From Clostridia bacterium (GTDB lineage: Bacteria > Bacillota > Clostridia > Oscillospirales > Butyricicoccaceae): a stretch of 32,000 nucleotides of DNA. How positions within the stretch are numbered: position 1 is the stretch's first letter; every line of letters begins with the position of its first letter. Shown piece after piece: positions 5,099 to 25,175 of the stretch. Location of the stretch: assembly GCA_017453985.1 (NCBI GenBank), contig JAFTDT010000051.1:10083-42082 (forward strand), in the 5' to 3' direction. The notes under the pieces are model-generated. The model ran no database searches and was not told the DNA's origin. It saw nothing but the letters and a program-made list of their open reading frames with translations. The position numbers and the translations under genes are program-made.

Positions 5099-7392
5099 AG
5101 ATGCCAATCTGCGCCCGCTGCGGCAAAAACGTGGCGGTAGTATTCATAACCAAAATGGAAAACGGCAGGACAACCAACGAGGGACTCTGCCTCAAATGCG
5201 CCCGCGATCTGGGGATAAAGCCGGCGGGAGATCTGATGAAAAAGTTCGGCATAACCGACGAGGACGTGGAGAATATGACCCGTGAGCTGACGGAGTCCGA
5301 GGGCATGCTGGAGGAGCTGATGGAGGGCATCGGCGGCGACCGCGAGGACGGGGAAGAAGAAGAGGACAGGCGCGAGGATCAGCCCTCGCGCGCACCCGCC
5401 ATGCCGTTTTTCAACCTCATGCGTCAGGCGCCAAAGCAGGAGGAGGAAGAGCGCGAGGAGCGCGGAGGAAAGCGCAAAAAGAAGAAATTCCTCTCAAATT
5501 ACGCTCTCAGCCTTACGCAGAAGGCGGCGGAGGGCAAGCTCGACCGCGTCGTCGGACGCGAGCGCGAAACGGAGCGCGTGATACAGATACTCAACCGCCG
5601 TCAGAAAAACAATCCATGTCTGATAGGCGAGCCGGGTGTCGGCAAGACCGCCGTGGCGGAGGGGCTTGCACAGCGCATACACGACGGCGATGTGCCGTAT
5701 AAGCTGAAGAACAAGGAGGTCTGGCTGCTGGACATGACGGCGATGGTTGCCGGCACGCAGTTCCGCGGTCAGTTCGAGGCGCGCATGAAGAGCCTTATCG
5801 AGGAGATAAAGGCGCTGGGGAATATCATACTGGTCATCGACGAGGTGCATAATCTGGTCGGCGCGGGCGATGCGGAGGGCAGCATGAACGCCGCCAATAT
5901 CCTCAAGCCGGCGCTGTCGCGCGGGGAGATACAGGTCGTCGGCGCGACGACCTTCAAGGAATACCGCAAGCATATCGAGAAGGACAGCGCGCTGGAGCGC
6001 AGGTTCCAGCCGGTGGTGATAAACGAGCCGACTCCGGACGAGACCTTTGAGATACTCAAGGGAGTCAAGGGCTATTACGAGCAATATCACAAGGTCAGGA
6101 TAAGCGATGAGGCGGCGCGTCAGGCGGTGTATCTGGCGGACAGATATATCAACGACCGTTTTATGCCCGACAAGGCGATAGATCTGCTCGACGAGGCGTG
6201 CTCGGACGTCAATCTCAAGAATACCGAGCTGATACGCATAGAGCAGCTCAGGGACGAGCTGGCGGATATAATCGCTCAGCGCGAGCAGGCAATGCAGCGT
6301 CCCGACGACGAAACGATATACGCGCAGATAGCACAGCTCAAAAGCCGCGAGCTGCAGGTGGAGCAGGAGCTGGCGGAGGCAGAGCGCGTGCCGTGGCCGA
6401 GCCTGACGGTGGACGATCTTTCCCGCGTTATCGAGCTGTGGACCAAGATACCTGCCAGCCGCGTGAAGGAGCAGGACTTCGAGCGCATAATCAAGCTCGA
6501 CAGCAGACTGAAGGAGCGCATCATCGGGCAGGACGAGGCGGTGGACGCGGTCGCCGCCGCCATACGCCGCCGCCGGGCTGGCATCAGCGAAAAGCTCAAG
6601 CCGGTTTCCTTCCTTTTCGTAGGACCGACGGGCGTGGGCAAGACCGAGCTGGTGAAGTGTCTGGCGGAGGACCTTTTCGGAACGCAGGACGCGCTGATAA
6701 GGCTGGACATGAGCGAATATATGGAAAAGCACAGCGTTTCCAAGCTGATAGGCGCCCCTCCGGGATATATCGGCTACGATGAGGCGGGACAGCTCACCGA
6801 GAAGATACGCCGCCGTCCGTACAGCGTGGTACTGTTCGACGAGATAGAAAAGGCGCATCCCGATGTGCTGAACATGCTGCTGCAGATATTGGATGACGGG
6901 CGCATCACGGACGCGCAGGGCAGATATGTCAGCTTTGAGAACGCGGTGGTCATCATGACCTCCAACGCCGGCTCGGAGCGACAGGACGGCGCGGTGGGCT
7001 TCGGCAGGACAGCAAGCGAGCAGGGACGCGAAAAGGCGCTCAAGGCGCTGAGAGATATCATGCGTCCGGAGTTCATCAACCGCATCGACGAGATAATCTC
7101 CTTCAATCAGCTTACCAGAGAGGACTTCATGCGGATATGCGATATCATGCTGGGCGACCTCAGCCGCGCCGTGGCTCGCAGCGGCATAGAGCTTATCTAT
7201 GACGAGCGCCTGACAGCGTATCTGGTGGAGAAGTCATACTCGATAAAATACGGCGCGAGAAACCTGCGCCGCACGATAGAAAAAGAGGTCGAGGACCGTG
7301 CGGCGACGCGGATAATAGCCTCCTACGAATCGCCTGTGACGAAGATATTCGCCACGGCGGACGAGAGCGGCGTCGTAATCCGCGCGGAATAG
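5095..7392 (+). CDS. ClpC/ClpA-type double-AAA+ unfoldase with atypical CxxC...CxxC N-terminus
   Basis: Start at ATG 5095 (ATGA overlap with the pgsA stop). Two Walker A motifs ([18 protein letters not shown]), a coiled-coil middle region and a ClpP-docking-like loop (GAVGFGR). The N-terminus is [12 protein letters not shown]...[11 protein letters not shown] followed by an acidic/basic low-complexity linker instead of Clp_N repeats. Confidence 0.85.
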
Positions 7393-7579
7393 CGGCTGAA
7401 GCCTGCGGAGAAGCCTCAGGCTTGCCGCCGCACCCTTCTTGGCTCTCTCTTTGGGAGTCGGTGAACTGCGGCACTTCGTTATAATTGTATTCCGTTTTTT
7501 GGAAGAGTGATGCTGCAGCTAAAAGTTCTTTATAAAATTAAAAAAATTATTATATTACGTAATTGGGTGGTGATTTGCT

Positions 7580-8665
7580 TTGAACGATAAACAGATTACT
7601 AAAATAAAGATTAACGGATTCAAGTCTATCCAAGAATGTTCAATAGACTTGGACATGGTGAATATTTTAATTGGCAGCAACGGTTCTGGCAAAACGAACT
7701 TCATATCTCTGTTTAGAATGCTGCAGGCATTGATTGATGGAGAATTACAAGCGCATATTTCGAAATATGGAGGACCTAATGCATTTTTGTTTTTTGGCAG
7801 CAAAAAGACGGAGTGTATGAGCGCGGAATTCTATTTTGGGGAAAATGGCTATCAATTTACCTTAACTCCAACCGCAGATAATCGAATGATGTTTGAAAAA
7901 GAGTCTTTTTATTGGGTGGAGTGCGGTTCTAAACCTGTAGGCAGTGGTCATTTTGAATCAAAATGGGAGGAAGGCTGTGGTTACCGAATTGATAAATTTG
8001 TAAAACCTATTCTGCAAAACCAAAAATGGAGAGTATATCATTTTCATGACACAAGCGATACAGCGCTTGTGAAGCAAATGCATGGAATTAATGATAATAT
8101 TGACTTTGCCACAGATGCCCGAAACTTGGCGGCATTTCTTTACCGCTTAAAGACTGCGGAAGAAAACAGCTATAATCAGATCGTTCGCACCATTCAGCTT
8201 GTCGCACCGTATTTTGAAGATTTTATTTTACGCCCTAATCCGCTTAAGCCGGACAGCATTCGTTTGGAATGGAAGGACAAAAACAGCGAAGCACCTTTTA
8301 TTGCAGCTCAACTTTCAGATGGAACGCTTCGGTTTATCTGCTTAGCAACTTTATTATTACAGCCGGCAAATTTAATGCCTGAAACAATACTGATTGATGA
8401 ACCGGAGCTTGGCTTGCACCCATATGCAATATCGCTGCTTGCCTCTTTAATAAAAAAAGCGTCAGTTGAAAAACAAATTATTGTTTCTACACAATCTGTT
8501 GAATTGCTTAATGAGTTTGAAGCTAAAGATATTATTGTAGTAAACCATAAAGAAAATAAATCTGTTTTTTCCCGATTGAATTATGAACAGCTTAAAGTGT
8601 GGCTTGATGAAGATTATACATTAGGTGAGCTTTGGAAGCGAAACGTCTTTGGGGGGCGCCCATAA
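7580..8665 (+). CDS. ABC/SMC-like (AAA_21-type) ATPase, first gene of the island cassette
   Basis: 361 aa. TTG start with GGTGGTGA RBS 6 nt upstream. Walker A GSNGSGKTN (7673-7699). Signature-like QLSDGTLRF (8309-8335). Walker B/D-loop ILIDEPELGLHP (8387-8422). H-loop position reads VSTQS (8483-8497). About 200 aa separate Walker A from the signature, as in RecF/SMC/OLD-type ATPases. Confidence 0.85.
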   Translation: MNDKQITKIKINGFKSIQECSIDLDMVNILIGSNGSGKTNFISLFRMLQALIDGELQAHISKYGGPNAFLFFGSKKTECMSAEFYFGENGYQFTLTPTADNRMMFEKESFYWVECGSKPVGSGHFESKWEEGCGYRIDKFVKPILQNQKWRVYHFHDTSDTALVKQMHGINDNIDFATDARNLAAFLYRLKTAEENSYNQIVRTIQLVAPYFEDFILRPNPLKPDSIRLEWKDKNSEAPFIAAQLSDGTLRFICLATLLLQPANLMPETILIDEPELGLHPYAISLLASLIKKASVEKQIIVSTQSVELLNEFEAKDIIVVNHKENKSVFSRLNYEQLKVWLDEDYTLGELWKRNVFGGRP

Positions 8666-8666
8666 G

Positions 8667-9296
8667 ATGAAGAGAGTAATAGTGTACTGCGAGGGACCTA
8701 CGGAGGAAACGTTTGTAAACAGGCTATTAGCTCCCATTTTCTATCCCAATAATATCTTTTTGTCTGCATCTTCGTGTAACGGCGTTTCTAAATACAGCAT
8801 TATCAAAAAAGATTTGAAAGTATTGTGTTCGAACGACAGAACTGCGATTATTACAACAATGCTTGATTATTATGCCTTTCCTTCCGACGCACCAGGAATG
8901 CAAAATAATGCAAACACAGATATTTATAGCAAAGTACAGTTTGTTGAAGATGCCATAAAGGCTGATATCGGCGCAAACAATCTAATACCGAATTTGATGC
9001 TGCATGAGTTTGAAGCGCTGCTGTTTTCTAGACCGGAGTGTTTTTCCTATTGTGGTTTACCACAAAGGAAACTGCAAGAACTGTGCGATATCAGAGCAAA
9101 AGTGGAAACCCCCGAACATATTAATAACAACCCAAGCACCGCTCCGTCAAAGCGCATATTGTCGCTGTATCCGGCATACAGCAAGTTCTTGGATGGATAT
9201 AATATTGCAGAAGACATTGGCATAGATGTTATGCGGTCACAATGTTTACATTTTAATGAATGGATTAATAAATTGGCAAAAATCAATGAAATATAA
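8667..9296 (+). CDS. DUF4276-like small protein (TOPRIM-like putative nuclease/effector), second gene of the island cassette
   Basis: 209 aa from ATG 8667, 1 nt after the ATPase TAA. Motifs VIVYCEGPTEETF, ITTMLDYY, LHEFEALLF and PEHINNNPSTAPSKRIL match my recollection of the DUF4276 family. The tracked GTG-type start at 8625 would overlap the ATPase by 41 nt and is rejected. Confidence 0.7.
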   Translation: MKRVIVYCEGPTEETFVNRLLAPIFYPNNIFLSASSCNGVSKYSIIKKDLKVLCSNDRTAIITTMLDYYAFPSDAPGMQNNANTDIYSKVQFVEDAIKADIGANNLIPNLMLHEFEALLFSRPECFSYCGLPQRKLQELCDIRAKVETPEHINNNPSTAPSKRILSLYPAYSKFLDGYNIAEDIGIDVMRSQCLHFNEWINKLAKINEI

Positions 9297-9300
9297 AAGA

Positions 9301-9327
9301 GAAGAGGGCAGAAAAGCTGTCCTCTTC
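9301..9327 (+). terminator. Hairpin downstream of the island cassette (terminator-like, weak U-tract)
   Basis: gaagagggcag-aaaag-ctgtcctcttc: an 11-bp stem with one G.U pair, 5 nt after the stop codon. The following sequence (ccttaac) is not U-rich. Confidence 0.45.
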
Positions 9328-9466
9328 CCTTAACAATGTGATACATGATCGCATAAACAATGCTTTTGCCGACGCCGAAATGCGTTGCTGCGGTATGAAT
9401 AAAAAAGTTCATAAAACTCTTTTGCGTCGATTATACGCCGTAGCCCCAATTTTCTTGCTAAAGCTA

Positions 9467-9496
9467 TTGACAAAGCGGAAGTGTCTGTATTATAAT
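9467..9496 (+). promoter_or_regulatory. Sigma-A-type promoter of the tRNA operon
   Basis: TTGACA (9467-9472), an 18-nt spacer, then TATAAT (9491-9496), about 27 nt upstream of tRNA-Gly. Confidence 0.65.
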
Positions 9497-9522
9497 TGAA
9501 AAGCTGACTTGGAGGGGCACAT

Positions 9523-9596
9523 GCAGGTGTAGTTCAATGGTAGAATGTCAGCCTTCCAAGCTGAACACGTGGGTTCGATTCCCATCACCTGCTCCA
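9523..9596 (+). tRNA. tRNA-Gly (anticodon UCC)
   Basis: Folded by hand. Acceptor GCAGGTG/CACCTGC, anticodon stem TCAGC/GCTGA with loop CTTCCAA, T-loop GGTTCGATTCC, encoded CCA. Confidence 0.9.
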
Positions 9597-9597
9597 A

Positions 9598-9634
9598 GTT
9601 AAGTAAACGCTGATATGCTCAGCGTTTACTTAAC
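9598..9634 (+). other. Perfect 16-bp inverted repeat in the tRNA-Gly/tRNA-Arg spacer
   Basis: gttaagtaaacgctga-tatgc-tcagcgtttacttaac. It is followed by a second 7-bp hairpin, ttccggg-aattg-cccggga (about 9643-9661). Confidence 0.8.
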
Positions 9635-9680
9635 AGCCTGCTTTCCGGGAATTGCCCGGGAGCCATGTCAAAAGTCACAT

Positions 9681-9757
9681 GTGCCTGTAGCTCAGCAGGA
9701 TAGAGCAACTGCCTTCTAAGCAGTAGGTTGGGGGTTCGAGTCCCTCCAGGCACGCCA
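9681..9757 (+). tRNA. tRNA-Arg (anticodon UCU)
   Basis: Acceptor GTGCCTG/CAGGCAC, anticodon stem ACTGC/GCAGT with loop CTTCTAA, T-loop GGTTCGAGTCC, encoded CCA. Confidence 0.9.
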
Positions 9758-9762
9758 AATAT

Positions 9763-9840
9763 GGTGGGTGTAGCTCAGGTGGTTAGAGCGCCAGGTTGTG
9801 GCCCTGGAGGCCGACGGTTCGAGTCCGTTCATCCACCCCA
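9763..9840 (+). tRNA. tRNA-His (anticodon GUG) with encoded G-1
   Basis: An extra 5' G pairs with discriminator C. Anticodon stem CCAGG/CCTGG with loop TTGTGGC, T-loop GGTTCGAGTCC, encoded CCA. Confidence 0.9.
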
Positions 9841-9872
9841 TTTTCTTTTTTATGCCGTGCGGCGGCAAATAC

Positions 9873-9946
9873 TGGGCTGTCGCCAAGGGGTAAGGCACCA
9901 GACTTTGACTCTGGCATCGTAGGTTCAAATCCTGCCAGCCCAGCCA
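9873..9946 (+). tRNA. tRNA-Gln (anticodon UUG)
   Basis: Acceptor TGGGCTG/CAGCCCA, anticodon stem CCAGA/TCTGG with loop CTTTGAC, T-loop GGTTCAAATCC, encoded CCA. Confidence 0.9.
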
Positions 9947-9949
9947 TAT

Positions 9950-10025
9950 GACCCATTAGCTCAGTCGGCAGAGCACCTGCCTTTTAAGCAGGGTGTCCGC
10001 AGTTCGAATCTGCGATGGGTCACCA
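9950..10025 (+). tRNA. tRNA-Lys (anticodon UUU)
   Basis: Acceptor GACCCAT/ATGGGTC, anticodon stem CCTGC/GCAGG with loop CTTTTAA, T-loop AGTTCGAATCT, encoded CCA. Confidence 0.9.
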
Positions 10026-10039
10026 TAGTTGTTTTGTCC

Positions 10040-10073
10040 GACGCCGCCGTGGCTTCCGGCGGCGTCGTTTTTA
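10040..10073 (+). terminator. Rho-independent terminator of the tRNA operon
   Basis: gacgccgccg-tggcttc-cggcggcgtc followed by gttttta. Confidence 0.8.
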
Positions 10074-10096
10074 TGCAAAAAAGGGAGATAAAGAAT

Positions 10097-11008
10097 ATGT
10101 GGTTTTGGTTTGCGCTCATCGCACTGCTCTGCTGGAGCGGCTCAGACCTGTTTTCAAAGATAGGCTGCGGCGACGGCAAGGATAAATACAGCCATCTCAA
10201 GATGGTCACCGCCGTCGGCGTCGTAATGGGACTGCACGCGGCGTATGAGATATTCATCGGCGGCGTGGAGATAAACGCCTCCGTCATCATGACCTATCTG
10301 CCGGTCTCGGCGCTGTACATACTTTCCATGGCGATAGGCTATCTCGGTCTGCGCTATATCGAGCTTTCCATCTCCTCTCCGATATGCAACAGCTCCGGCG
10401 CAATCGTGGCGGTGCTGACGCTCATCACCGTCGGCGTGGGCGACGATCTGCCGCCGGTGGCGCTGGTTGCGGTGGCGCTGGTCTGCCTCGGCGTGATTGG
10501 GCTGGGCGTGACCGAGGCGCGTGAGGACGAGGAGCTGCGCCGCGCGCGTCAGGACGAATCCAACCGTCACTATGCCAAGAGCTGGATAGCGATACTGATA
10601 CCGATAGTTTACTGTCTGCTGGACGCGCTGGGCACTTTTGCGGACAGCCGCGTGCTGGAGGTGCTGAACGAGGACTCGGCAAACGTGGCGTACGAGCTGA
10701 CCTTCCTCGCGGTCGGTCTGCTGTGCCTGATATACGTCGTGCTGATAAAAAAGCAGCCGCTGGTTCCGCGGCAGGAGGCGCCCAAGTACACCGGCGCAAT
10801 ATTTGAAACCATCGGGCAGTTCTTCTACATCTACGCGCTGGCAGATACGGAGCATGTCGCCTTCGCCGCGCCGATAATCTCCGCTTACTGCGTGGCGTCG
10901 GTGATATGGAGCCGCCTGTTCCTCAAGGAAAAGCTGTCCAAAAAGCATTACGCCTGCATCGCGGTGGTCGTCGCCGGCATAATCATTCTGGGCGTGCTGG
11001 ACATTTGA
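10097..11008 (+). CDS. DMT-superfamily (EamA-like) transporter
   Basis: About 303 aa from ATG 10097, with GGGAGA RBS 8 nt upstream. About 10 TM helices in two halves. The upstream part of the tracked ORF overlaps the tRNA terminator and is rejected. Confidence 0.7.
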   Translation: MWFWFALIALLCWSGSDLFSKIGCGDGKDKYSHLKMVTAVGVVMGLHAAYEIFIGGVEINASVIMTYLPVSALYILSMAIGYLGLRYIELSISSPICNSSGAIVAVLTLITVGVGDDLPPVALVAVALVCLGVIGLGVTEAREDEELRRARQDESNRHYAKSWIAILIPIVYCLLDALGTFADSRVLEVLNEDSANVAYELTFLAVGLLCLIYVVLIKKQPLVPRQEAPKYTGAIFETIGQFFYIYALADTEHVAFAAPIISAYCVASVIWSRLFLKEKLSKKHYACIAVVVAGIIILGVLDI

Positions 11009-13569: not shown

Positions 13570-14127
13570 CTATTTGCCCTTCTTGTCGGCGAGCAGCGGC
13601 TTGAGCGCCTTGTATATCACGCCGGTTTTTTCGCTGCCGAACTGCTTTGCCAGCGCGTTGTTAAAGCCCTGCTTGGTCTTGTATTTTTCCAGATAATCTA
13701 TCACCAGCGGCACGTCATTTTTATATTGCGGTATCAGCTTGCTCACGCGCTCCTCGTAAGATTCGCGGTCGTATTCCGAGAGGTCATAGGCGCACTTGAT
13801 GCGTATGCCGCGCTCCTTCCAAAAGCTGACCACGCTCTGAAATCCTTGGTCGCGGCTGACTATGACATAAGACTCGCCGCCGCGCTTGGCGATGAGCCAG
13901 CCGAGGTAGGACACGAGCTGAAAATCGAGGCTGTTTTTGGAGCCGGCGGTGACGGAGATGAGCTGCACCGCGGCGCGGGAAGCATTGATGCGCTCGTGCA
14001 GGGAAAAGGTGAGCGTGTTCGACCGCTCGCTGTAAAATATCATCACGCTGTCCTTCTCTCCGAGACTCTCCACCCCGTTCATGCCCTTGATATGCACGTT
14101 TTCGTAATCTATCAGATATGTCGCCAT
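13570..14127 (-). CDS. NYN/LabA-like PIN-fold domain protein (putative RNase) with small C-terminal helical domain
   Basis: 185 aa from ATG 14127 (AAGGAG RBS). Acidic NYN-like positions are LIDYENV, SLDFQL and VSRDQGF. The 35-aa upstream extension in the track is rejected. Confidence 0.6.
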   Translation of the reverse strand: MATYLIDYENVHIKGMNGVESLGEKDSVMIFYSERSNTLTFSLHERINASRAAVQLISVTAGSKNSLDFQLVSYLGWLIAKRGGESYVIVSRDQGFQSVVSFWKERGIRIKCAYDLSEYDRESYEERVSKLIPQYKNDVPLVIDYLEKYKTKQGFNNALAKQFGSEKTGVIYKALKPLLADKKGK

Positions 14128-19300: not shown

Positions 19301-20010
19301 GCGGCGGCACGCGCGAGCTGATAGCCGCGGCGCAGCGCGGAGACGGCGAGAGCATGGGGCGGCTGGCGGAGGAAAACGCGCCGCTTATCTGGAGCGTCGT
19401 GCGCCGCTTTATGGGGCGCGGGACGGATGCGGAGGACCTGTTCCAGCTCGGCAGCATCGGCTTTATCAAGGCGGTGCGCGGCTTTGACGAGAGCTTCGGC
19501 ACGCAGTTTTCCACCTATGCCGTGCCCAAGATAGCGGGAGAGATACGGCGTTATCTGCGCGACGACGGCATGATAAAGGTCAGCCGCAGCGTTAAGGAAA
19601 ACGCCGCGAGACTCCGCGCCGCGCGCGAGAGCTTTGAAAAAACGCGGGGGCGCAGCCCGCATATCAGCGAGCTGACAGAGCTGACGGGGCTGAGCGGCGA
19701 GGAAATAACATTGTGCGAGCAGGCGGCGAGCGACGCGCTCTCGCTGGATACGCCGCCGGACGCGGGAGCGCCGCCGCTGGCGGAGGTGCTGCGGGGGGAC
19801 GGCGGCGAGGACAGGCTGGTGGAGAGCCTTGCGCTCTCCGGCGCGATAGAGCGGCTGGAGCCGGTGCAGAAGGCGGTGATAATCCTGCGCTATTTCCGCG
19901 ACCTGACACAGCAAAAGACCGCGCAGATATTGGACATCTCACAGGTGCAGGTCTCGCGGCTGGAAAAGCGCGCCTGCGCCGCCCTGCGGCAGAGCCTCGG
20001 TGAGGACTGA
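19297..20010 (+). CDS. sigF: Sporulation sigma factor SigF
   Basis: 237 aa sigma-70 family protein with regions 2-4 (DLFQLGSIGFIKAVRGFD, FSTYAVPKIAGEIRRYLRD, TQQKTAQILDISQVQVSRLEKRA). It sits downstream of spoIIAB. Confidence 0.88.
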   Translation: MSGGTRELIAAAQRGDGESMGRLAEENAPLIWSVVRRFMGRGTDAEDLFQLGSIGFIKAVRGFDESFGTQFSTYAVPKIAGEIRRYLRDDGMIKVSRSVKENAARLRAARESFEKTRGRSPHISELTELTGLSGEEITLCEQAASDALSLDTPPDAGAPPLAEVLRGDGGEDRLVESLALSGAIERLEPVQKAVIILRYFRDLTQQKTAQILDISQVQVSRLEKRACAALRQSLGED

Positions 20011-20228: not shown

Positions 20229-23200
20229 TTACTTTTTCCATGCCTCCAGCGTGAGGTACATTATTGTTCTCCAGTCGTTGGAGTCTACAATATCGCGCCA
20301 TTGGGCTTCGTCTGCGGAATTGCTGATGGCTTTGCCGTCTATGTCCGCCATAAGTATCCACAGATTATAGTCCTCGTTTTCGTTGAGCGTGACCGTGTAT
20401 CCGGCGTCGCTCGGCTTGGTATCGCGGCTGCTCGGCGCCTCCAGCGCCCAGCGCATGACATTCGCCCAGTCGTTGGCGTCCATCTCGCCGTCCAAATTGA
20501 CGTCGCCGGGGGTGGCGAGGAGATATTCCCTGCCCTCCAGCGTGAGGCGCACTGCGCCGGGGGCGAGGGAGGTCAGCTCGATGTGTACGCCGCCGTCGTC
20601 ATAGGCGCGGATGTGCATGACGGGTACGATCTCGCCGTTTTGCTTCGCATAGCTCAAGATCCGCTCATCTTCGGGCGAGCTGTCGCTCTCCGTCAGCGTC
20701 AGCCTCTCAAATCCTATGCTTCCGCCTGCGTTCCGCACTGCCCGCTCGAATGTCGCGCCGTTCAGCGCGGTCAGCGCATCACCCGGCGTGCTTGCGCCAA
20801 GGACGCGCAGCGTCATGCTGATGTTGTCCGGGTCATAGCCGTAGGTATTCGGCTCGCCGGTGCCGCCCGCCGTGCGGCTCATGCCCTCAGACCGCAGTAT
20901 CTTGCCGACGGTAAACGGCTCGCCGTCCTCGCTCAGCAGCCCCACGTCATCTGTAACCGTGAAGGACACCGTACAGCTTCCGAGGGTTACTTCGTACGTG
21001 CCGTCGCCGTCAACGTCGTACTCAAGCGTCAGCACCGTTTCGTAATAACCCGCATCAAGCCCCTCTCTCGGAGCCGCGCGGAAAAGCTCCGCGTTGTCAA
21101 ATCCTCCGTTGATACCCAGCATACCCGCGCCGCTGTTGAAATAGGGGATGATATCCTCATTATCCGCATAGACACGGATTTTCGCGGGGTCAAGCGGCAC
21201 GCTGGAGTGGTTGACAAAGTAGATGCTCTGGGAAAAGTCCGCGGGGTCATAGCCCTCGCGCGCAGTGCCGAGATGCTTATCGGATATGGTCACGCTATAT
21301 GTCGGCAGAAAGTCAAATCTGAGAGTCACCGAGCGATTATCTCCGGAGATTCTTATGATGATTTCGTTAATGAGGTCGGCGGGTATATCCTTGAACACGG
21401 CGGTCATATCCTCCCGCGGCGCAAACTGATAGCCCTCGTCCGCCTTGAACTGCGCGTCGAACTGGTACATCTTGCCCTGCTCAAACTTCTCACCCGCCGC
21501 CATTTGGTGCCTATCCGTAAGATTGTACCAATGAGGCGTCCCGACAATGCTGTAATGCGCGTCTGCGGGGAGCGTCCACGAGGTCGTGTCGGGAGCCTTG
21601 CCGACGAGGGGAGCCGTGCCGCCCTCCAGCGCGACCTCGGTTATCGGTATGGGAGGCATCGGACCCTTGTAATAAATATAGCCACCAAGATTGGAATAGA
21701 CCTCAATAATGCCGTTGGTCAGAATATACGGATTGATTGGCAGAATATATCCCGGCGCGATGACCGAGGACAGGTCGGGCGAGACGATGAAGTAATGCTT
21801 GCCATACTCAAAGGTCGGCGTGGTCATAGGTACTGCCTCGGAAAAAAAGTGGCTATCGCCCTCGTACCACACGACGGCGACGCTGTCCACGGTCAGTCCG
21901 CCCGCCGGCTCTGTCTGCACCTGCATGACCGTGGACGGGACTGCGCCTGTCACAGCCTCCTCAATGGTAAAGCGCAGTTCCCTTATCTCCACCGGCTCGC
22001 TGGCGGTAAAGATATGTCTCACGCCGAGGCAGCGTATACCCGGTATCTCGGTTACGATCGTTACCTCGTCCGGCTCCATGCCGTTGACGGTCGCCGTTGC
22101 AGCATCGTCAAAGAAATATCCGTCCTTCGGCATGAGTATCGTGATAAGCTCATATTCCCTGCCTGCCTCAAAGACGTCGCCCGCCTGCGCCGGCTCCATG
22201 CGGCCGTCCTTCATGACGCCCCAAGCGGAGGCGAATACGACATAGCCCGCGCCGTCCTCGACGCCGACGTCCACCGATAAAAAGTCACCTGCGTTTCGGC
22301 GGACGGGTATCGGCGCTCCGATGACGGGCTCCGCCACCGTCAGCGCGGCGGACTCTATCGCATCCTCCGGCAGAGTGGGGTCAAGCGGGTTGATGGGATA
22401 CCAGACGTAGAAGTCGCCCGACGGCAGCCAGGGCGGCGCGTCCACGGCAGTGCCGTTCACGTTCACGACCGTGTCGGCGTCGAACAAGCAATCGCTTTGC
22501 TTGCACTGGAACTCAACAACGGCATAGTAGGTCTTGTCCTCGTAAACGCCGCTGACGGCAGTGCCGTATGGCGCATCGTCTATACTTGCAACCCTTGCAT
22601 AATAGTCCGTGCCGCCCGGCGCGGTGAAAATGGCGGACGGGTCTATCGTGTCGCCGATACGGGGCGTGCGAAAGGTCGCCTCGGCAGAGTGCAGGACGGT
22701 GTACTCATTCCAGAGGGCATAGAGCGTGAGGTCTGCGTTGATAACGGTAACATCAAACCTGCAAAGCTCCGTGCATTCAGCATCAAGATACCAGTCATCG
22801 AGCATGTATTTGCCGTCGATAAGCTCATTCGGGAAGTATGTATCCCACAGCTCTCCTAACTCTATCGCATCATGAAGGTTCATGCCTGCGGCGACCTTCA
22901 GCGGCGGGAACTCGCCGTGGCCGTTGCCGTCAAAGGTGACGGTGTAGAACACCGAAGGCGCGATCTTTACATATTTGTATGCGGAGCTGCTGCCGCCCAG
23001 AGCAGCCATGCCGTCCCACGCTGTCGCGCCCGCGGACGAAGCGGCTGTATTCACCCGCACGGCAGGCGCGGGAGCGTAGCCGGAAAGGTCGGGGTCATGT
23101 CCAAAAGCTGCGCTGTTGCCTCTTGCCTCCACCGTGCCGCCGTTGATGGTGTAGACGTGCTCGCCGCTTTGATCATTGCCGACGCCGTAGCTTCCACTCT

Positions 23201-25175
23201 TTGCCTCACCGCCGGCGGCTATGAGGGAGCCGCCGTTTACGGTAAGATTTCTTGCGTAAACGCCGTAGCTGCTCGCGTTTTCCGATTTGCCGCCGCCGGC
23301 GATAAGCGTGCCGCCGTCCATGGTCAATGATTTTACGCTCACGCCGATGCTCCCTATACTGACGCCTTCTCCCGCCGTCACGGTCAGACTGCCTTCGCCG
23401 GTGACGGTGAGGTGATAATCGGGGTAGTAAGTACAGCAGATGCCGTAGCTGTATGAGGATGCCGGAATACCGGTGATGGTGCTGTCTCCCTCCAGCTTCA
23501 GGGTCATGTCCTCACCTATGATGATGCCGGCAGTGTGAGTTCCGGCAGGAGGCCCGGAGATATCCGCCGCCGTGACGTCGGCGTCCGTCAGGGTCAGGGT
23601 CTTGCCGAGCGGGTCGTAGGTGACGCTGCCGCCGTCCTCCAGCACGTCGTCTTTGTTGGCGCCGGTCACCTGCACGCCGCCCACCCAGACGGGATATACC
23701 GGCTCCGTCGCGGTGCTGAGCTTCGCCCGTACATATACGTCCACATCGCTCTTGTAACTGCTATGCCACATCGCAGCGTCCGGAGCCGCGCCGTTGACGG
23801 TTATCGTCGGAAAGCTCTCTGTGTCCCATTCGTACTCACCCGTGTTCTCGATGTTGAAATAGAAATAGTATTCGCCGTCTGCACGCAGCGGCTCGTCGCT
23901 GTTGTGCAGGGGCAGGTAGTTCTCTCCGCGATTTTCCACAAGGGTAGTATAGTCACTGTCTGTATAGACATACCAGCCGCCAGGCGCGCCGGGCGAGCTC
24001 GTGCCCTTGGGCGAGGTGATGCTGCTGCGCAGCAGCTCCGTCGCCTCGCGCCCGGTCATTTCCTCCGTCAGCGTGACAGGCTCGTGCCGGATATCTATCG
24101 CGGCGGAAATGATGTGCTTTGGCAGCACCTTCACGGTCAGCTCGTCGTATTTTGAGGAATCCCGCGCGGAGGTCGCCCGCACGGTGAGAAGCTCCGCCGT
24201 CTCGCCATCGCTGACATTGAGAGATGCCGAAAGAGAGCCGTCGGGGCTGTAGATTTCGGTACTGGCTGAGCTGTTTCCGCTGAGCGTCCAGAGCAAGTCG
24301 TGGACGTCCGTGCCGACGACCTCGGCTGTGAAATAGACGGAGTTGCCCCGGATGACCTCCGTTTTGTCCGCGCTTATCTTCACGCTCTCTATCGTTACAG
24401 GCGCGTCAATAAGAGATACCTCGCACTCGGCATAGTATGCCGTGTTCACGGCGGAGGTCGCCCGTACGGTCAGCGTGGACGCCGTTTCGTCCGCCGCAAC
24501 GGTGAGAGTCCCGTCCGCGCCGATGCGCGTGCCGGCTGCCTCGTTGCCGCTCAGGCTCCACGTCACGGTATCCAGCGTGCCCTGCACCTTGGCGTGCAGC
24601 TGCTTCTCCGTGCCGCGCTGCACCCTGAAGAGGTTCGGCTCGATGGAAATGCCCCACACCGCATCCGCCGTCTCGTCAAAACGCGCGCGCACATAGACGT
24701 CCACATCGCCGTTAGGCTCCTGATTGCGCCACTCCGCAGCGTCCGGAGCCGCGCCGTTGACGGTTATCGTCGGCAGATTTTCCGTGTCCCATTCGCAGTC
24801 ACTCGTGTTCTCGATATTGAACCAGAAATAATATTCTCCGTCTGCGCGCAGCGGCTCGTCGCTGTTGTGCAGGGACAGGTAGCGATCTCCGAGCTTTTCC
24901 ACAAGGGCCGTATAGTCGCCGTCTGCATAGACATACCAGCCGCCAGGCGTGTCGGATAGATTCACACCCTTGGGCGAGGTGATGCTGCCGCGCAGCAGCT
25001 CCGTCGCCTCGCGTCCGGTAAAGCGCGTGGAGACAAAGGCGAGCGCCGCATCATATCCGATGTTGATGGAGGACGCGACCTTCGGCTTCTCTGCAAACGT
25101 CTGCACGGGCAGCAGCCCTGTCAGCATGGCGAGCGCCAGCAGCAGACTCAGCAGCCTCGTCGTTCGATTTTTCAT
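20229..25175 (-). CDS. Giant secreted multi-domain surface protein (signal peptide, duplicated novel module, 2x Big_2-like Ig domains, beta-helix-like Gly-rich repeats, Listeria-Bacteroides (Flg_new)-like repeat, several beta-sandwich-like modules, C-terminal dockerin-like module)
   Basis: 1648 aa. Signal peptide MKNRTTRLLSLLLALAMLTGLLPVQTFA/EK. Ig-like segments at aa ~175-355 (…LHAKVQGTLDTVTWSLSGNEAAGTRIGADGTLTV…; …FTAEVVGTDVHDLLWTLSGNSSAS…). Flg_new-like FYTVTFDGNGHG…DDWYLDAECTELCRFD…DLTLYALW. C-terminal GDVNLDGEMDANDWANVMRWAL … ADIDGKA…DSNDWRTIMYLTL (about 20232-20507). Confidence 0.85.
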   Translation of the reverse strand: MKNRTTRLLSLLLALAMLTGLLPVQTFAEKPKVASSINIGYDAALAFVSTRFTGREATELLRGSITSPKGVNLSDTPGGWYVYADGDYTALVEKLGDRYLSLHNSDEPLRADGEYYFWFNIENTSDCEWDTENLPTITVNGAAPDAAEWRNQEPNGDVDVYVRARFDETADAVWGISIEPNLFRVQRGTEKQLHAKVQGTLDTVTWSLSGNEAAGTRIGADGTLTVAADETASTLTVRATSAVNTAYYAECEVSLIDAPVTIESVKISADKTEVIRGNSVYFTAEVVGTDVHDLLWTLSGNSSASTEIYSPDGSLSASLNVSDGETAELLTVRATSARDSSKYDELTVKVLPKHIISAAIDIRHEPVTLTEEMTGREATELLRSSITSPKGTSSPGAPGGWYVYTDSDYTTLVENRGENYLPLHNSDEPLRADGEYYFYFNIENTGEYEWDTESFPTITVNGAAPDAAMWHSSYKSDVDVYVRAKLSTATEPVYPVWVGGVQVTGANKDDVLEDGGSVTYDPLGKTLTLTDADVTAADISGPPAGTHTAGIIIGEDMTLKLEGDSTITGIPASSYSYGICCTYYPDYHLTVTGEGSLTVTAGEGVSIGSIGVSVKSLTMDGGTLIAGGGKSENASSYGVYARNLTVNGGSLIAAGGEAKSGSYGVGNDQSGEHVYTINGGTVEARGNSAAFGHDPDLSGYAPAPAVRVNTAASSAGATAWDGMAALGGSSSAYKYVKIAPSVFYTVTFDGNGHGEFPPLKVAAGMNLHDAIELGELWDTYFPNELIDGKYMLDDWYLDAECTELCRFDVTVINADLTLYALWNEYTVLHSAEATFRTPRIGDTIDPSAIFTAPGGTDYYARVASIDDAPYGTAVSGVYEDKTYYAVVEFQCKQSDCLFDADTVVNVNGTAVDAPPWLPSGDFYVWYPINPLDPTLPEDAIESAALTVAEPVIGAPIPVRRNAGDFLSVDVGVEDGAGYVVFASAWGVMKDGRMEPAQAGDVFEAGREYELITILMPKDGYFFDDAATATVNGMEPDEVTIVTEIPGIRCLGVRHIFTASEPVEIRELRFTIEEAVTGAVPSTVMQVQTEPAGGLTVDSVAVVWYEGDSHFFSEAVPMTTPTFEYGKHYFIVSPDLSSVIAPGYILPINPYILTNGIIEVYSNLGGYIYYKGPMPPIPITEVALEGGTAPLVGKAPDTTSWTLPADAHYSIVGTPHWYNLTDRHQMAAGEKFEQGKMYQFDAQFKADEGYQFAPREDMTAVFKDIPADLINEIIIRISGDNRSVTLRFDFLPTYSVTISDKHLGTAREGYDPADFSQSIYFVNHSSVPLDPAKIRVYADNEDIIPYFNSGAGMLGINGGFDNAELFRAAPREGLDAGYYETVLTLEYDVDGDGTYEVTLGSCTVSFTVTDDVGLLSEDGEPFTVGKILRSEGMSRTAGGTGEPNTYGYDPDNISMTLRVLGASTPGDALTALNGATFERAVRNAGGSIGFERLTLTESDSSPEDERILSYAKQNGEIVPVMHIRAYDDGGVHIELTSLAPGAVRLTLEGREYLLATPGDVNLDGEMDANDWANVMRWALEAPSSRDTKPSDAGYTVTLNENEDYNLWILMADIDGKAISNSADEAQWRDIVDSNDWRTIMYLTLEAWKK
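23721..24056 (-). repeat. Intragenic repeat copy 2 (aa 374-485 of the surface protein)
   Basis: TGREATELLRSSITSPKG…GGWYVYTDSDYTTLVE…LHNSDEPLRADGEYYFYFNIENT…EWDTESFPTITVNGAAPDAAMW…DVDVYVRAK. The offset from copy 1 is exactly 321 aa (963 bp). Confidence 0.9.
24681..25019 (-). repeat. Intragenic repeat copy 1 (aa 53-165 of the surface protein)
   Basis: TGREATELLRGSITSPKG…GGWYVYADGDYTALVE…LHNSDEPLRADGEYYFWFNIENT…EWDTENLPTITVNGAAPDAAEW…DVDVYVRAR. Long identical DNA runs are shared with copy 2 (e.g. cccttgggcgaggtgatgctgc, gcgcagcagctccgtcgcctcgcg). Confidence 0.9.

Follow-up and report, generated by a model that had tools for sequence, protein, structure and literature searches.

A solitary HEC-01 islet flanked by clpC and tRNA genes in a Clostridia genome: a candidate ABC ATPase-Toprim defense module

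We analyzed a 32,000-nucleotide stretch of a Clostridia metagenome-assembled genome (MAG; contig JAFTDT010000051.1, positions 10,083 to 42,082 of the forward strand, hereafter the window), in which two genes at 7580-9296, coding for an ABC ATPase (gene 1) and a DUF4276 protein (gene 2), make up an AT-rich islet. This gene pair is a member of the already catalogued candidate anti-phage system HEC-01 and not a new system, because both of its proteins match the HEC-01 models over their full length. We consider it reasonably probable that the islet is a standalone, horizontally acquired HEC-01 copy that works as an ATPase-gated Toprim nuclease defense module, in effect a class 2 OLD protein split over two genes.

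Identification of the gene pair as HEC-01

Among the PADLOC-DB v2 profiles, HEC-01A (PDLC04175) matched gene 1 at 6.7e-147, with residues 1-361 aligned to profile positions 1-362 of 363, and HEC-01B (PDLC04188) matched gene 2 at 2.7e-74 over residues 1-206. The two genes are adjacent and co-oriented with A before B, as in HEC-01. An earlier note on this DNA, made from the letters alone, had proposed the PADLOC search that gave these full-length matches; its open question of novelty is answered against novelty by them, as the pair already bears the name HEC-01, with a published fold analysis and two phage-challenge tests.

Other PADLOC models reach gene 1 far more weakly and only in part: AriA (1.7e-26), mad3 (1.1e-24) and AbiLi (1.7e-24), followed by NsnB (2.7e-19), Old (3.4e-19) and GajA (1.1e-17). 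Its best NCBIfam model is MAD3 (NF047739), on which it scores 96 bits where the cut-off is 420. Gene 2 matches only HEC-01B models in PADLOC (E <= 0.1), and NCBIfam assigns it to no family. A further PADLOC-DB model labeled HEC-01B, PDLC04144, matches the gene 1 ATPase (2.1e-27, residues 148-359) and not the DUF4276 protein; this label appears inconsistent with the other HEC-01B models.

HEC-01 stands for Hma-embedded candidate 01, an ABC ATPase with a TOPRIM protein found inside Hma systems, whose HEC-01B component has the OLD metal-binding site by structure prediction (Payne et al., bioRxiv 10.1101/2024.01.29.577857). It ranks among the 12 most abundant candidate system types of a cold-seep dataset, and a cold-seep HEC-01 in E. 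coli B is reported as one of four candidates giving protection from at least one of the phages T7, T5 and T4 (Nat Commun 2026, PMC12881386); a 2026 wastewater study still counts HEC-01 as an unvalidated candidate. The family-level features of the window's copy do not set it apart from other HEC-01 members.

Structures and conserved residues of the two proteins

Gene 1 is recognized by the Pfam domains AAA_21 (1.4e-27) and AAA_15 (1.3e-16) and contains the Walker A motif GSNGSGKTN (residues 32-40), the signature QLSDGT and the Walker B motif LIDEPELGLHP. The key residues, namely K38 of Walker A, S246-D247-G248 of the signature, D273-E274 of Walker B and H280 at the D-loop, are invariant across 42 gene 1 homologues. 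The AlphaFold (AF2) model from 42 sequences, with a predicted local distance difference test score (pLDDT) of 91.4, is closest in Foldseek to SMC heads (4I99, template-modeling (TM) score 0.62-0.69), the Septu/retron PtuA and the Thermus scotoductus OLD protein 6P74. A sequence search of the PDB recovered GajA and SMC3 in the Walker A region only, plus weak OLD and PtuA matches. The reading of gene 1 as an SMC/RecF/OLD-style ABC ATPase, made earlier from the quoted motifs, therefore holds for motifs and model alike; judged by the predicted structure, gene 1 is an ABC-type and not an AAA+ ATPase head, with its nucleotide site intact. Two regions are peculiar to the family. The H-loop is T304-Q305-S306 (8489-8497), with glutamine in place of histidine in 42/42 HEC-01A sequences; and the C-terminal tail (8600-8662), modeled at low confidence, has W341, G349, W352, N355, G358, G359 and R360 invariant in the 42 sequences and may be a partner-docking or regulatory tail.

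Gene 2, with the N-terminus MKRVIVYCEGPTEE and the motif VIVYCEGPTEE, aligns with 191/192 positions of the Pfam DUF4276 profile (1.2e-53), its sole Pfam match. Its AF2 model from 47 sequences (pLDDT 93.6) has a strand-helix-strand-helix-strand core followed by a helical domain. At E <= 0.001 Foldseek retrieved only 6NJV, 6NJX and 6NJW from Xanthomonas campestris and 6NK8 from Burkholderia pseudomallei (E 1e-4 to 6e-4), in each case the Toprim-plus-helical region at the C-terminus of a class 2 OLD protein; about 225 columns are aligned at 14-16% sequence identity and TM-scores of 0.45-0.49. Only the fold comparison reached OLD, the gene 2 family profile giving 0 matches at E <= 10 against PDB sequences.

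Residues E9, E13, D67, E94, D100, H113, E114 and E116 of gene 2 are invariant in 47 sequences, in agreement with the conserved acidic positions noted earlier for this 209-residue protein. In the model E9 directly follows strand 1, E13 lies one helical turn on and D67 ends strand 3, and these are the canonical Toprim positions. After strand 3 the family has D-x-Y, namely D67-Y68-Y69 (8865-8873) with D67 and Y69 invariant in the 47 sequences, where Toprim has DxD, and the other invariant acids E94, D100, E114 and E116 may complete the metal site. The model thus presents gene 2 as a Toprim-like fold with conserved acidic metal-site residues, for which nuclease activity is predicted. The literature places DUF4276 together with RloB in the Toprim superfamily, with Mad4 as a DUF4276 homologue (NAR 2025, PMC12065111), and the tree of AAA_15/21 defense ATPases in the PARIS paper takes in DUF4276 (PMC11464382).

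The ABC/SMC-head and TOPRIM/OLD matches that the earlier note had expected of Foldseek were both obtained, and its proposal of a split-OLD-like cassette of an ATPase and a TOPRIM-like DUF4276 protein, as a candidate conflict system, is supported by both folds. The picture of a split OLD is structurally justified because gene 1 supplies the ABC head and gene 2 the Toprim-plus-helical fold of class 2 OLD.

The pair also resembles RecF/RecR in its make-up, RecF being an ABC ATPase of the SMC-like type and RecR a protein with a Toprim domain, and kinship with them would give it a housekeeping role in DNA repair or replication restart. A weak N-terminal RecF match and the housekeeping neighborhood would fit this. 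The RecF model (TIGR00611), however, has a cut-off of 172 bits, of which gene 1 reaches 31, and its match spans no more than residues 6-42, the Walker A region, so that RecFR membership was rejected; in structure gene 2 comes closest to an OLD nuclease and not to RecR. With the foreign composition, the sporadic phyletic distribution and the loci lacking the pair that are described below, this explanation becomes highly improbable.

Organization and acquisition of the islet

The islet lies between clpC and a cluster of five tRNA genes, and the two genes are its sole coding content. Its features and immediate borders are as follows.

Ending at 7392: ClpC-type ATPase gene, upstream flank
7475-7579, plus strand: AT-rich 5' leader of the islet, with the drop in GC content starting near 7475
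7580-8665, plus strand: HEC-01A, a 361-residue minimal ABC (SMC/RecF/OLD-type) ATPase head without a coiled coil
8663-8669, plus strand: junction TAAgATG, with the gene 1 TAA at 8663-8665, a one-base spacer and the gene 2 ATG at 8667
8667-9296, plus strand: HEC-01B, a 209-residue DUF4276 protein with a Toprim core and a C-terminal helical domain
9297-9331, plus strand: imperfect hairpin directly 3' of the gene 2 stop codon, arms 9297-9311 and 9317-9331, 87% complementary, 5-nucleotide loop
9467-9496, plus strand: tRNA operon promoter TTGACA-18-TATAAT, 12/12 consensus match, context outside the cassette
9523-10025: tRNA-Gly/Arg/His/Gln/Lys array, downstream flank, tRNA-Gly beginning at 9523

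In the list of open reading frames (ORFs) gene 1 begins with TTG and gene 2 with ATG. The TTG start is sound because alignments with gene 1 homologues set in at residue 1-5 and 361 residues is also the length in public gene calls; a Shine-Dalgarno-like run, GGGTGGTGA, at 7565-7573 ends 6 nucleotides ahead of it. The leader contains a promoter-like site at 7529-7556, which is weak (9/12 match) and no better than those in shuffled sequence, and is thus at most a putative promoter. The genes lie in different frames with a stop codon between them, and the one-base junction, which is as the earlier note described it, is consistent with translational coupling. The hairpin behind gene 2 could act as the transcription stop of the cassette; it has no T-run and was not called by the terminator scan. 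An Rfam search of 7300-10100 for RNA elements returned the five tRNAs only, none of them within the islet.

The description of an AT-rich island of two genes in a high-GC housekeeping region proved accurate: GC content is 0.36-0.40 in the 500-nucleotide bins of 7501-9500 and 0.53-0.69, mostly near 0.6, in every other bin of the window. A counterpart of the uninterrupted arrangement is found in locus L108 (5975-6383; JAEEGK010003658.1), where clpC is followed, 50 nucleotides on, by tRNA-Gly(tcc), Arg(tct), His(gtg) and Gln(ttg) without an insert; its clpC is 56% identical, the upstream CDP-alcohol phosphatidyltransferase gene is kept, and the tRNA order is that of window 9523-9946. This empty arrangement and the 20-point GC deficit indicate an insertion of about 2 kb into the interval from clpC to the tRNA promoter. 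On its right side the insert must end upstream of the promoter at 9467-9496, because that promoter serves the downstream tRNA operon, and the borders are not mappable to the nucleotide because no ClpC relative in the metagenome scan is closer than 67% identity. HEC-01 is absent from 80/80 metagenomic loci with ClpC relatives (<=67% identical), which, like the tRNA array directly after clpC in L108, argues against a RecF/RecR-like housekeeping function.

The islet was thus acquired horizontally by a high-GC, spore-forming Clostridia MAG. An empty site in the same species was not found: the contigs that encode an identical ClpC number four, and each of them includes the cassette or the beginning of it. 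A search for target-site duplications and terminal repeats in 7300-9620 gave short, chance-level repeats only, and no integrase or transposase marks the insertion. In another uncultured Clostridia MAG (L027:1-3600, CAMVKI010000080.1; ClpC 62% identical) a different HEC-01 pair, 54% and 44% identical to that of the window and with a GC content of 0.36 against 0.62, lies directly downstream of clpC. The two cases suggest independent, integrase-free capture at the intergenic site 3' of clpC, and in high-GC Clostridia this site, so far seen occupied twice, may be a recurrent, integrase-independent landing site for two-gene islets. Compared with the copy of Clostridium sp. CAG:413, the nearest genome copy among the matches listed, gene 1 has a nonsynonymous divergence (dN) of 0.12 and gene 2 one of 0.23, while synonymous divergence (dS) is saturated; purifying selection therefore acts on both.

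Phyletic distribution, pairing and genomic context

Relatives were scanned with one genome per species, which yielded at least 554 confirmed relatives; the genome-locus counts given below refer to 80 retained loci. In all 80 the gene that directly precedes the DUF4276 gene on the same strand codes for a homologue of the ATPase (40-81% identical), with an ATGA gene overlap in 63 and, in the remainder except one, the two genes within 11 nucleotides. A protein identical to that of gene 2 is on record at NCBI, under the name DUF4276 family protein, from a Clostridia MAG, and it occurs on contigs of at least six samples, always with the ATPase. This strict pairing extends across Clostridia, Negativicutes, Alpha-, Beta- and Gammaproteobacteria, Cyanobacteria, Myxococcota, Acidobacteriota, Bacteroidota and an archaeon, the methanogen Methanimicrococcus. 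The distribution is patchy and driven by horizontal transfer, and the GC content of the pair is below that of its flanks in 67/80 loci, by a mean of 4.8 points. A departure from the intact pair is seen in a Lachnospiraceae MAG (L008:8911-9998, JAJXRY010000001.1), where the alignment to the ATPase homologue is broken into two or three pieces that lie in different frames, which suggests a frameshifted, pseudogenized HEC-01A beside an intact DUF4276 gene.

The pair stands alone in 69/80 loci, among heterogeneous and mostly housekeeping neighbors (glycosyltransferases, a release factor, the single-strand-binding protein SSB, threonine synthase, tRNA synthetases); a minority of these neighbors are defense genes, namely PglZ (twice), PglX, Mokosh, type I restriction-modification (R-M) and mad3/mad8. 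In 10-11 of the 80, mostly proteobacterial, it lies within a larger SNF2-helicase/type III R-M defense locus. The gene order in Limnohabitans sp. T6-5 (L075:5886-18020) is DrmD-like SNF2 helicase, HEC-01A/B, PDC-S65, type III methyltransferase, PDC-S05 and type III restriction enzyme. A gut copy 66% identical to that of the window adjoins tyrosine integrases, a NERD-UvrD helicase and a PIN_4 giant protein. Enrichment in defense islands, which the earlier note had proposed to measure, is accordingly weak: the embedded loci speak for it, and the solitary majority speaks against it.

As an observation in its own right, the Limnohabitans locus and 9-10 similar ones nest several candidate systems in one R-M/helicase frame, PDC-S65 being SIR2-like and PDC-S05 RhuM-like. 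These recurrent neighbors are described by their components and not as Hma, because in the Limnohabitans locus PADLOC scores a DrmD-like SNF2 helicase plus type III methyltransferase and restriction enzyme, with HmaA only a weaker match (7e-51).

The embedded loci bear on a rival explanation, in which the pair is an accessory module that needs a methylase/helicase system of the MADS, Hma or type III R-M-like kind, a stand-alone copy being inactive or relictual. It would also account for MAD3 being one of the closest relatives that the ATPase has in NCBIfam and PADLOC once HEC-01 is set aside, for Mad4 being a DUF4276 homologue (PMC12065111) and for the inactivity of a stand-alone HEC-01 in an E. 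coli test (10.1101/2024.01.29.577857). We nonetheless judge it quite unlikely: the 69 stand-alone copies retain intact ORFs and invariant catalytic residues, the dN values given above accompany saturated dS, the MAD3 score is far below its cut-off and no Mad4 model matches gene 2, and no methylase or helicase partner is encoded within the 32-kb window.

Proposed mechanism and its alternatives

In the mechanism that we propose, HEC-01A and HEC-01B would be translated together from a single mRNA and, by analogy with OLD, Gabija and PARIS, would assemble into a complex in which the ATPase head would act as sensor and gatekeeper and the Toprim protein as metal-dependent nuclease effector. A cue of infection might shift the nucleotide cycle or the oligomeric state of the ATPase, and this change would license or release the Toprim subunit, which would cut nucleic acid and stop phage replication. 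The same three systems are our basis for complex formation, ATPase gating, the trigger and the substrate, DNA or tRNA, all of which we infer. The literature contributes the conserved TOPRIM metal site of HEC-01B and the protection by one HEC-01 homologue. Homologues gave one negative and one positive result, and for the window's copy an anti-phage function is a candidate function.

Several observations weigh against this proposal. A representative HEC-01 failed to protect E. coli MG1655 ΔRM from each of the BASEL and classic coliphages used as challenge (10.1101/2024.01.29.577857), and the positive report comes without a fold-reduction and names the AAA_21 domain only (PMC12881386). The TM-scores of gene 2 to OLD are moderate (0.45-0.49), and its nuclease activity is not guaranteed, because D67-x-Y69 stands in place of DxD. 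No defense island surrounds the pair in the window or in most genomes, where the nearest neighbors are mostly housekeeping genes. HEC-01 occurs in 0/50,697 GenBank phage records and on 5 of 2.9 M IMG/VR contigs, and is rare on plasmids (13/72,556).

The negative phage test also favors a selfish addiction or toxin-antitoxin-like module, in which a Toprim toxin would be held by the ATPase and the pair would be kept by post-segregational killing or transfer and not for phage defense. A solitary, tightly coupled, low-GC two-gene islet with a patchy distribution across phyla looks the part, and Pfam annotates AAA_21 as a putative AbiEii/type IV toxin-antitoxin-associated domain. Plasmids and phages, where addiction modules thrive, are however precisely where HEC-01 is rare; the pair is repeatedly embedded in restriction/helicase defense loci; and one homologue is reported to be protective (PMC12881386). 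The difference from abortive-infection defense is in part semantic. We regard this explanation as unlikely.

The H-loop T-Q-S, the invariant W...G-W-N-GGR tail and the D-x-Y caution against a simple transfer of the OLD mechanism. As family-specific invariants, the H-loop glutamine, the conserved ATPase tail and the D-x-Y make it conceivable that the mechanism is unlike that of OLD, Gabija and PARIS: the ATPase might be a slow or non-hydrolyzing switch, the tail might plug or complete the Toprim site, and the target might be RNA or tRNA. To this variant, combined with a recurrent landing site at clpC, we assign a low probability. We retain as our preferred reading an ATPase-gated Toprim nuclease working in defense.

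HEC-01 is widespread, and yet the evidence for it is thin, its activity data amounting to a single negative test and a positive one that is weakly documented. The window adds another member and little beyond. It does display the typical natural state of the family, a solitary and recently acquired two-gene islet among housekeeping genes, and this is why methods based on defense islands missed HEC-01. It also offers a clean Firmicutes example with defined boundaries that is usable for functional work. A solved HEC-01 mechanism would fill one more branch of the ABC-ATPase/Toprim (OLD-like) immune superfamily.

Flanking genes and other features of the window

The upstream flank consists of ECF transporter genes, truA, cvpA, a CDP-alcohol phosphatidyltransferase gene and clpC. 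Beyond the tRNAs follow genes for an EamA transporter, an M20 peptidase, valS, folC, spoIIAA/AB, a SigF-like sigma factor, spoIIE, yidC and jag. A small PIN7-domain gene at 13570-14127 on the minus strand (a public call on the same contig, L001 14904-15461), with an acetyltransferase gene on one side and valS on the other, may be a solitary toxin-like gene. A 1648-residue ORF at 20229-25175 on the minus strand, whose sole match is a borderline Listeria-Bacteroides repeat, is probably a large surface protein, and the cumulative GC skew ceases to rise near 20000, at the start of this ORF.

Comparison with known systems

The ATPase-plus-nuclease logic of the pair is common to Septu/retron PtuA-PtuB and Gabija GajA-GajB, whose ABC ATPases PtuA and GajA are structurally similar to gene 1. 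PtuB, however, is an HNH nuclease, GajB is a UvrD helicase and GajA carries its own Toprim domain, and the window has none of these partners. Gabija membership was rejected, as the GajA matches are partial and at 1e-17 or weaker and there is no helicase gene in or next to the islet; AbiL and Septu were also considered and rejected, each on a defining feature that fails.

In MADS (Mad3/Mad4) and Menshen (NsnB/NsnC-DUF4276), too, a related ATPase of the AAA_21 type is found together with a Toprim effector domain of the DUF4276 type, but they are multi-gene systems with methylase or NsnA/NsnC partners that the islet lacks. MADS was rejected on the NF047739 score of 96 bits against 420, the absence of a methylase from the window and the absence of a Mad4 match to gene 2, and Menshen on the weak NsnB match (2.7e-19) and the lack of a third gene in the islet.

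PARIS, with AriA and the DUF4435 protein AriB, is likewise a two-gene system of an ABC ATPase and a separate Toprim effector, and shows that an ATPase scaffold can release a Toprim nuclease (PMC11464382). The AriA profile matches gene 1 only in part (1.7e-26, residues 205-311), AriA is a protein of 53-55 kDa (PMC11464382) whereas HEC-01A has 361 residues, and PARIS is often phage- or satellite-borne whereas HEC-01 is almost absent from phage records. PARIS membership was rejected, gene 2 being DUF4276 and not DUF4435, with no AriB model matching.

With class 2 OLD (6NK8, 6NJV) the likeness takes in both proteins, gene 2 aligning over its whole length with the OLD C-terminal region and gene 1 being an OLD/SMC-type head. 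OLD is a single polypeptide whereas the window has two genes, and gene 2 has D-x-Y after strand 3 in place of DxD; membership of OLD was rejected because the ATPase and Toprim parts are not fused and lie in two ORFs in different frames. It is the HEC-01 family with which the pair shares the gene order, the ABC ATPase head, the TOPRIM-like partner and end-to-end profile matches. In contrast to the HEC-01 of Payne et al., the window's copy lies outside any defense locus, alone between clpC and a tRNA operon.

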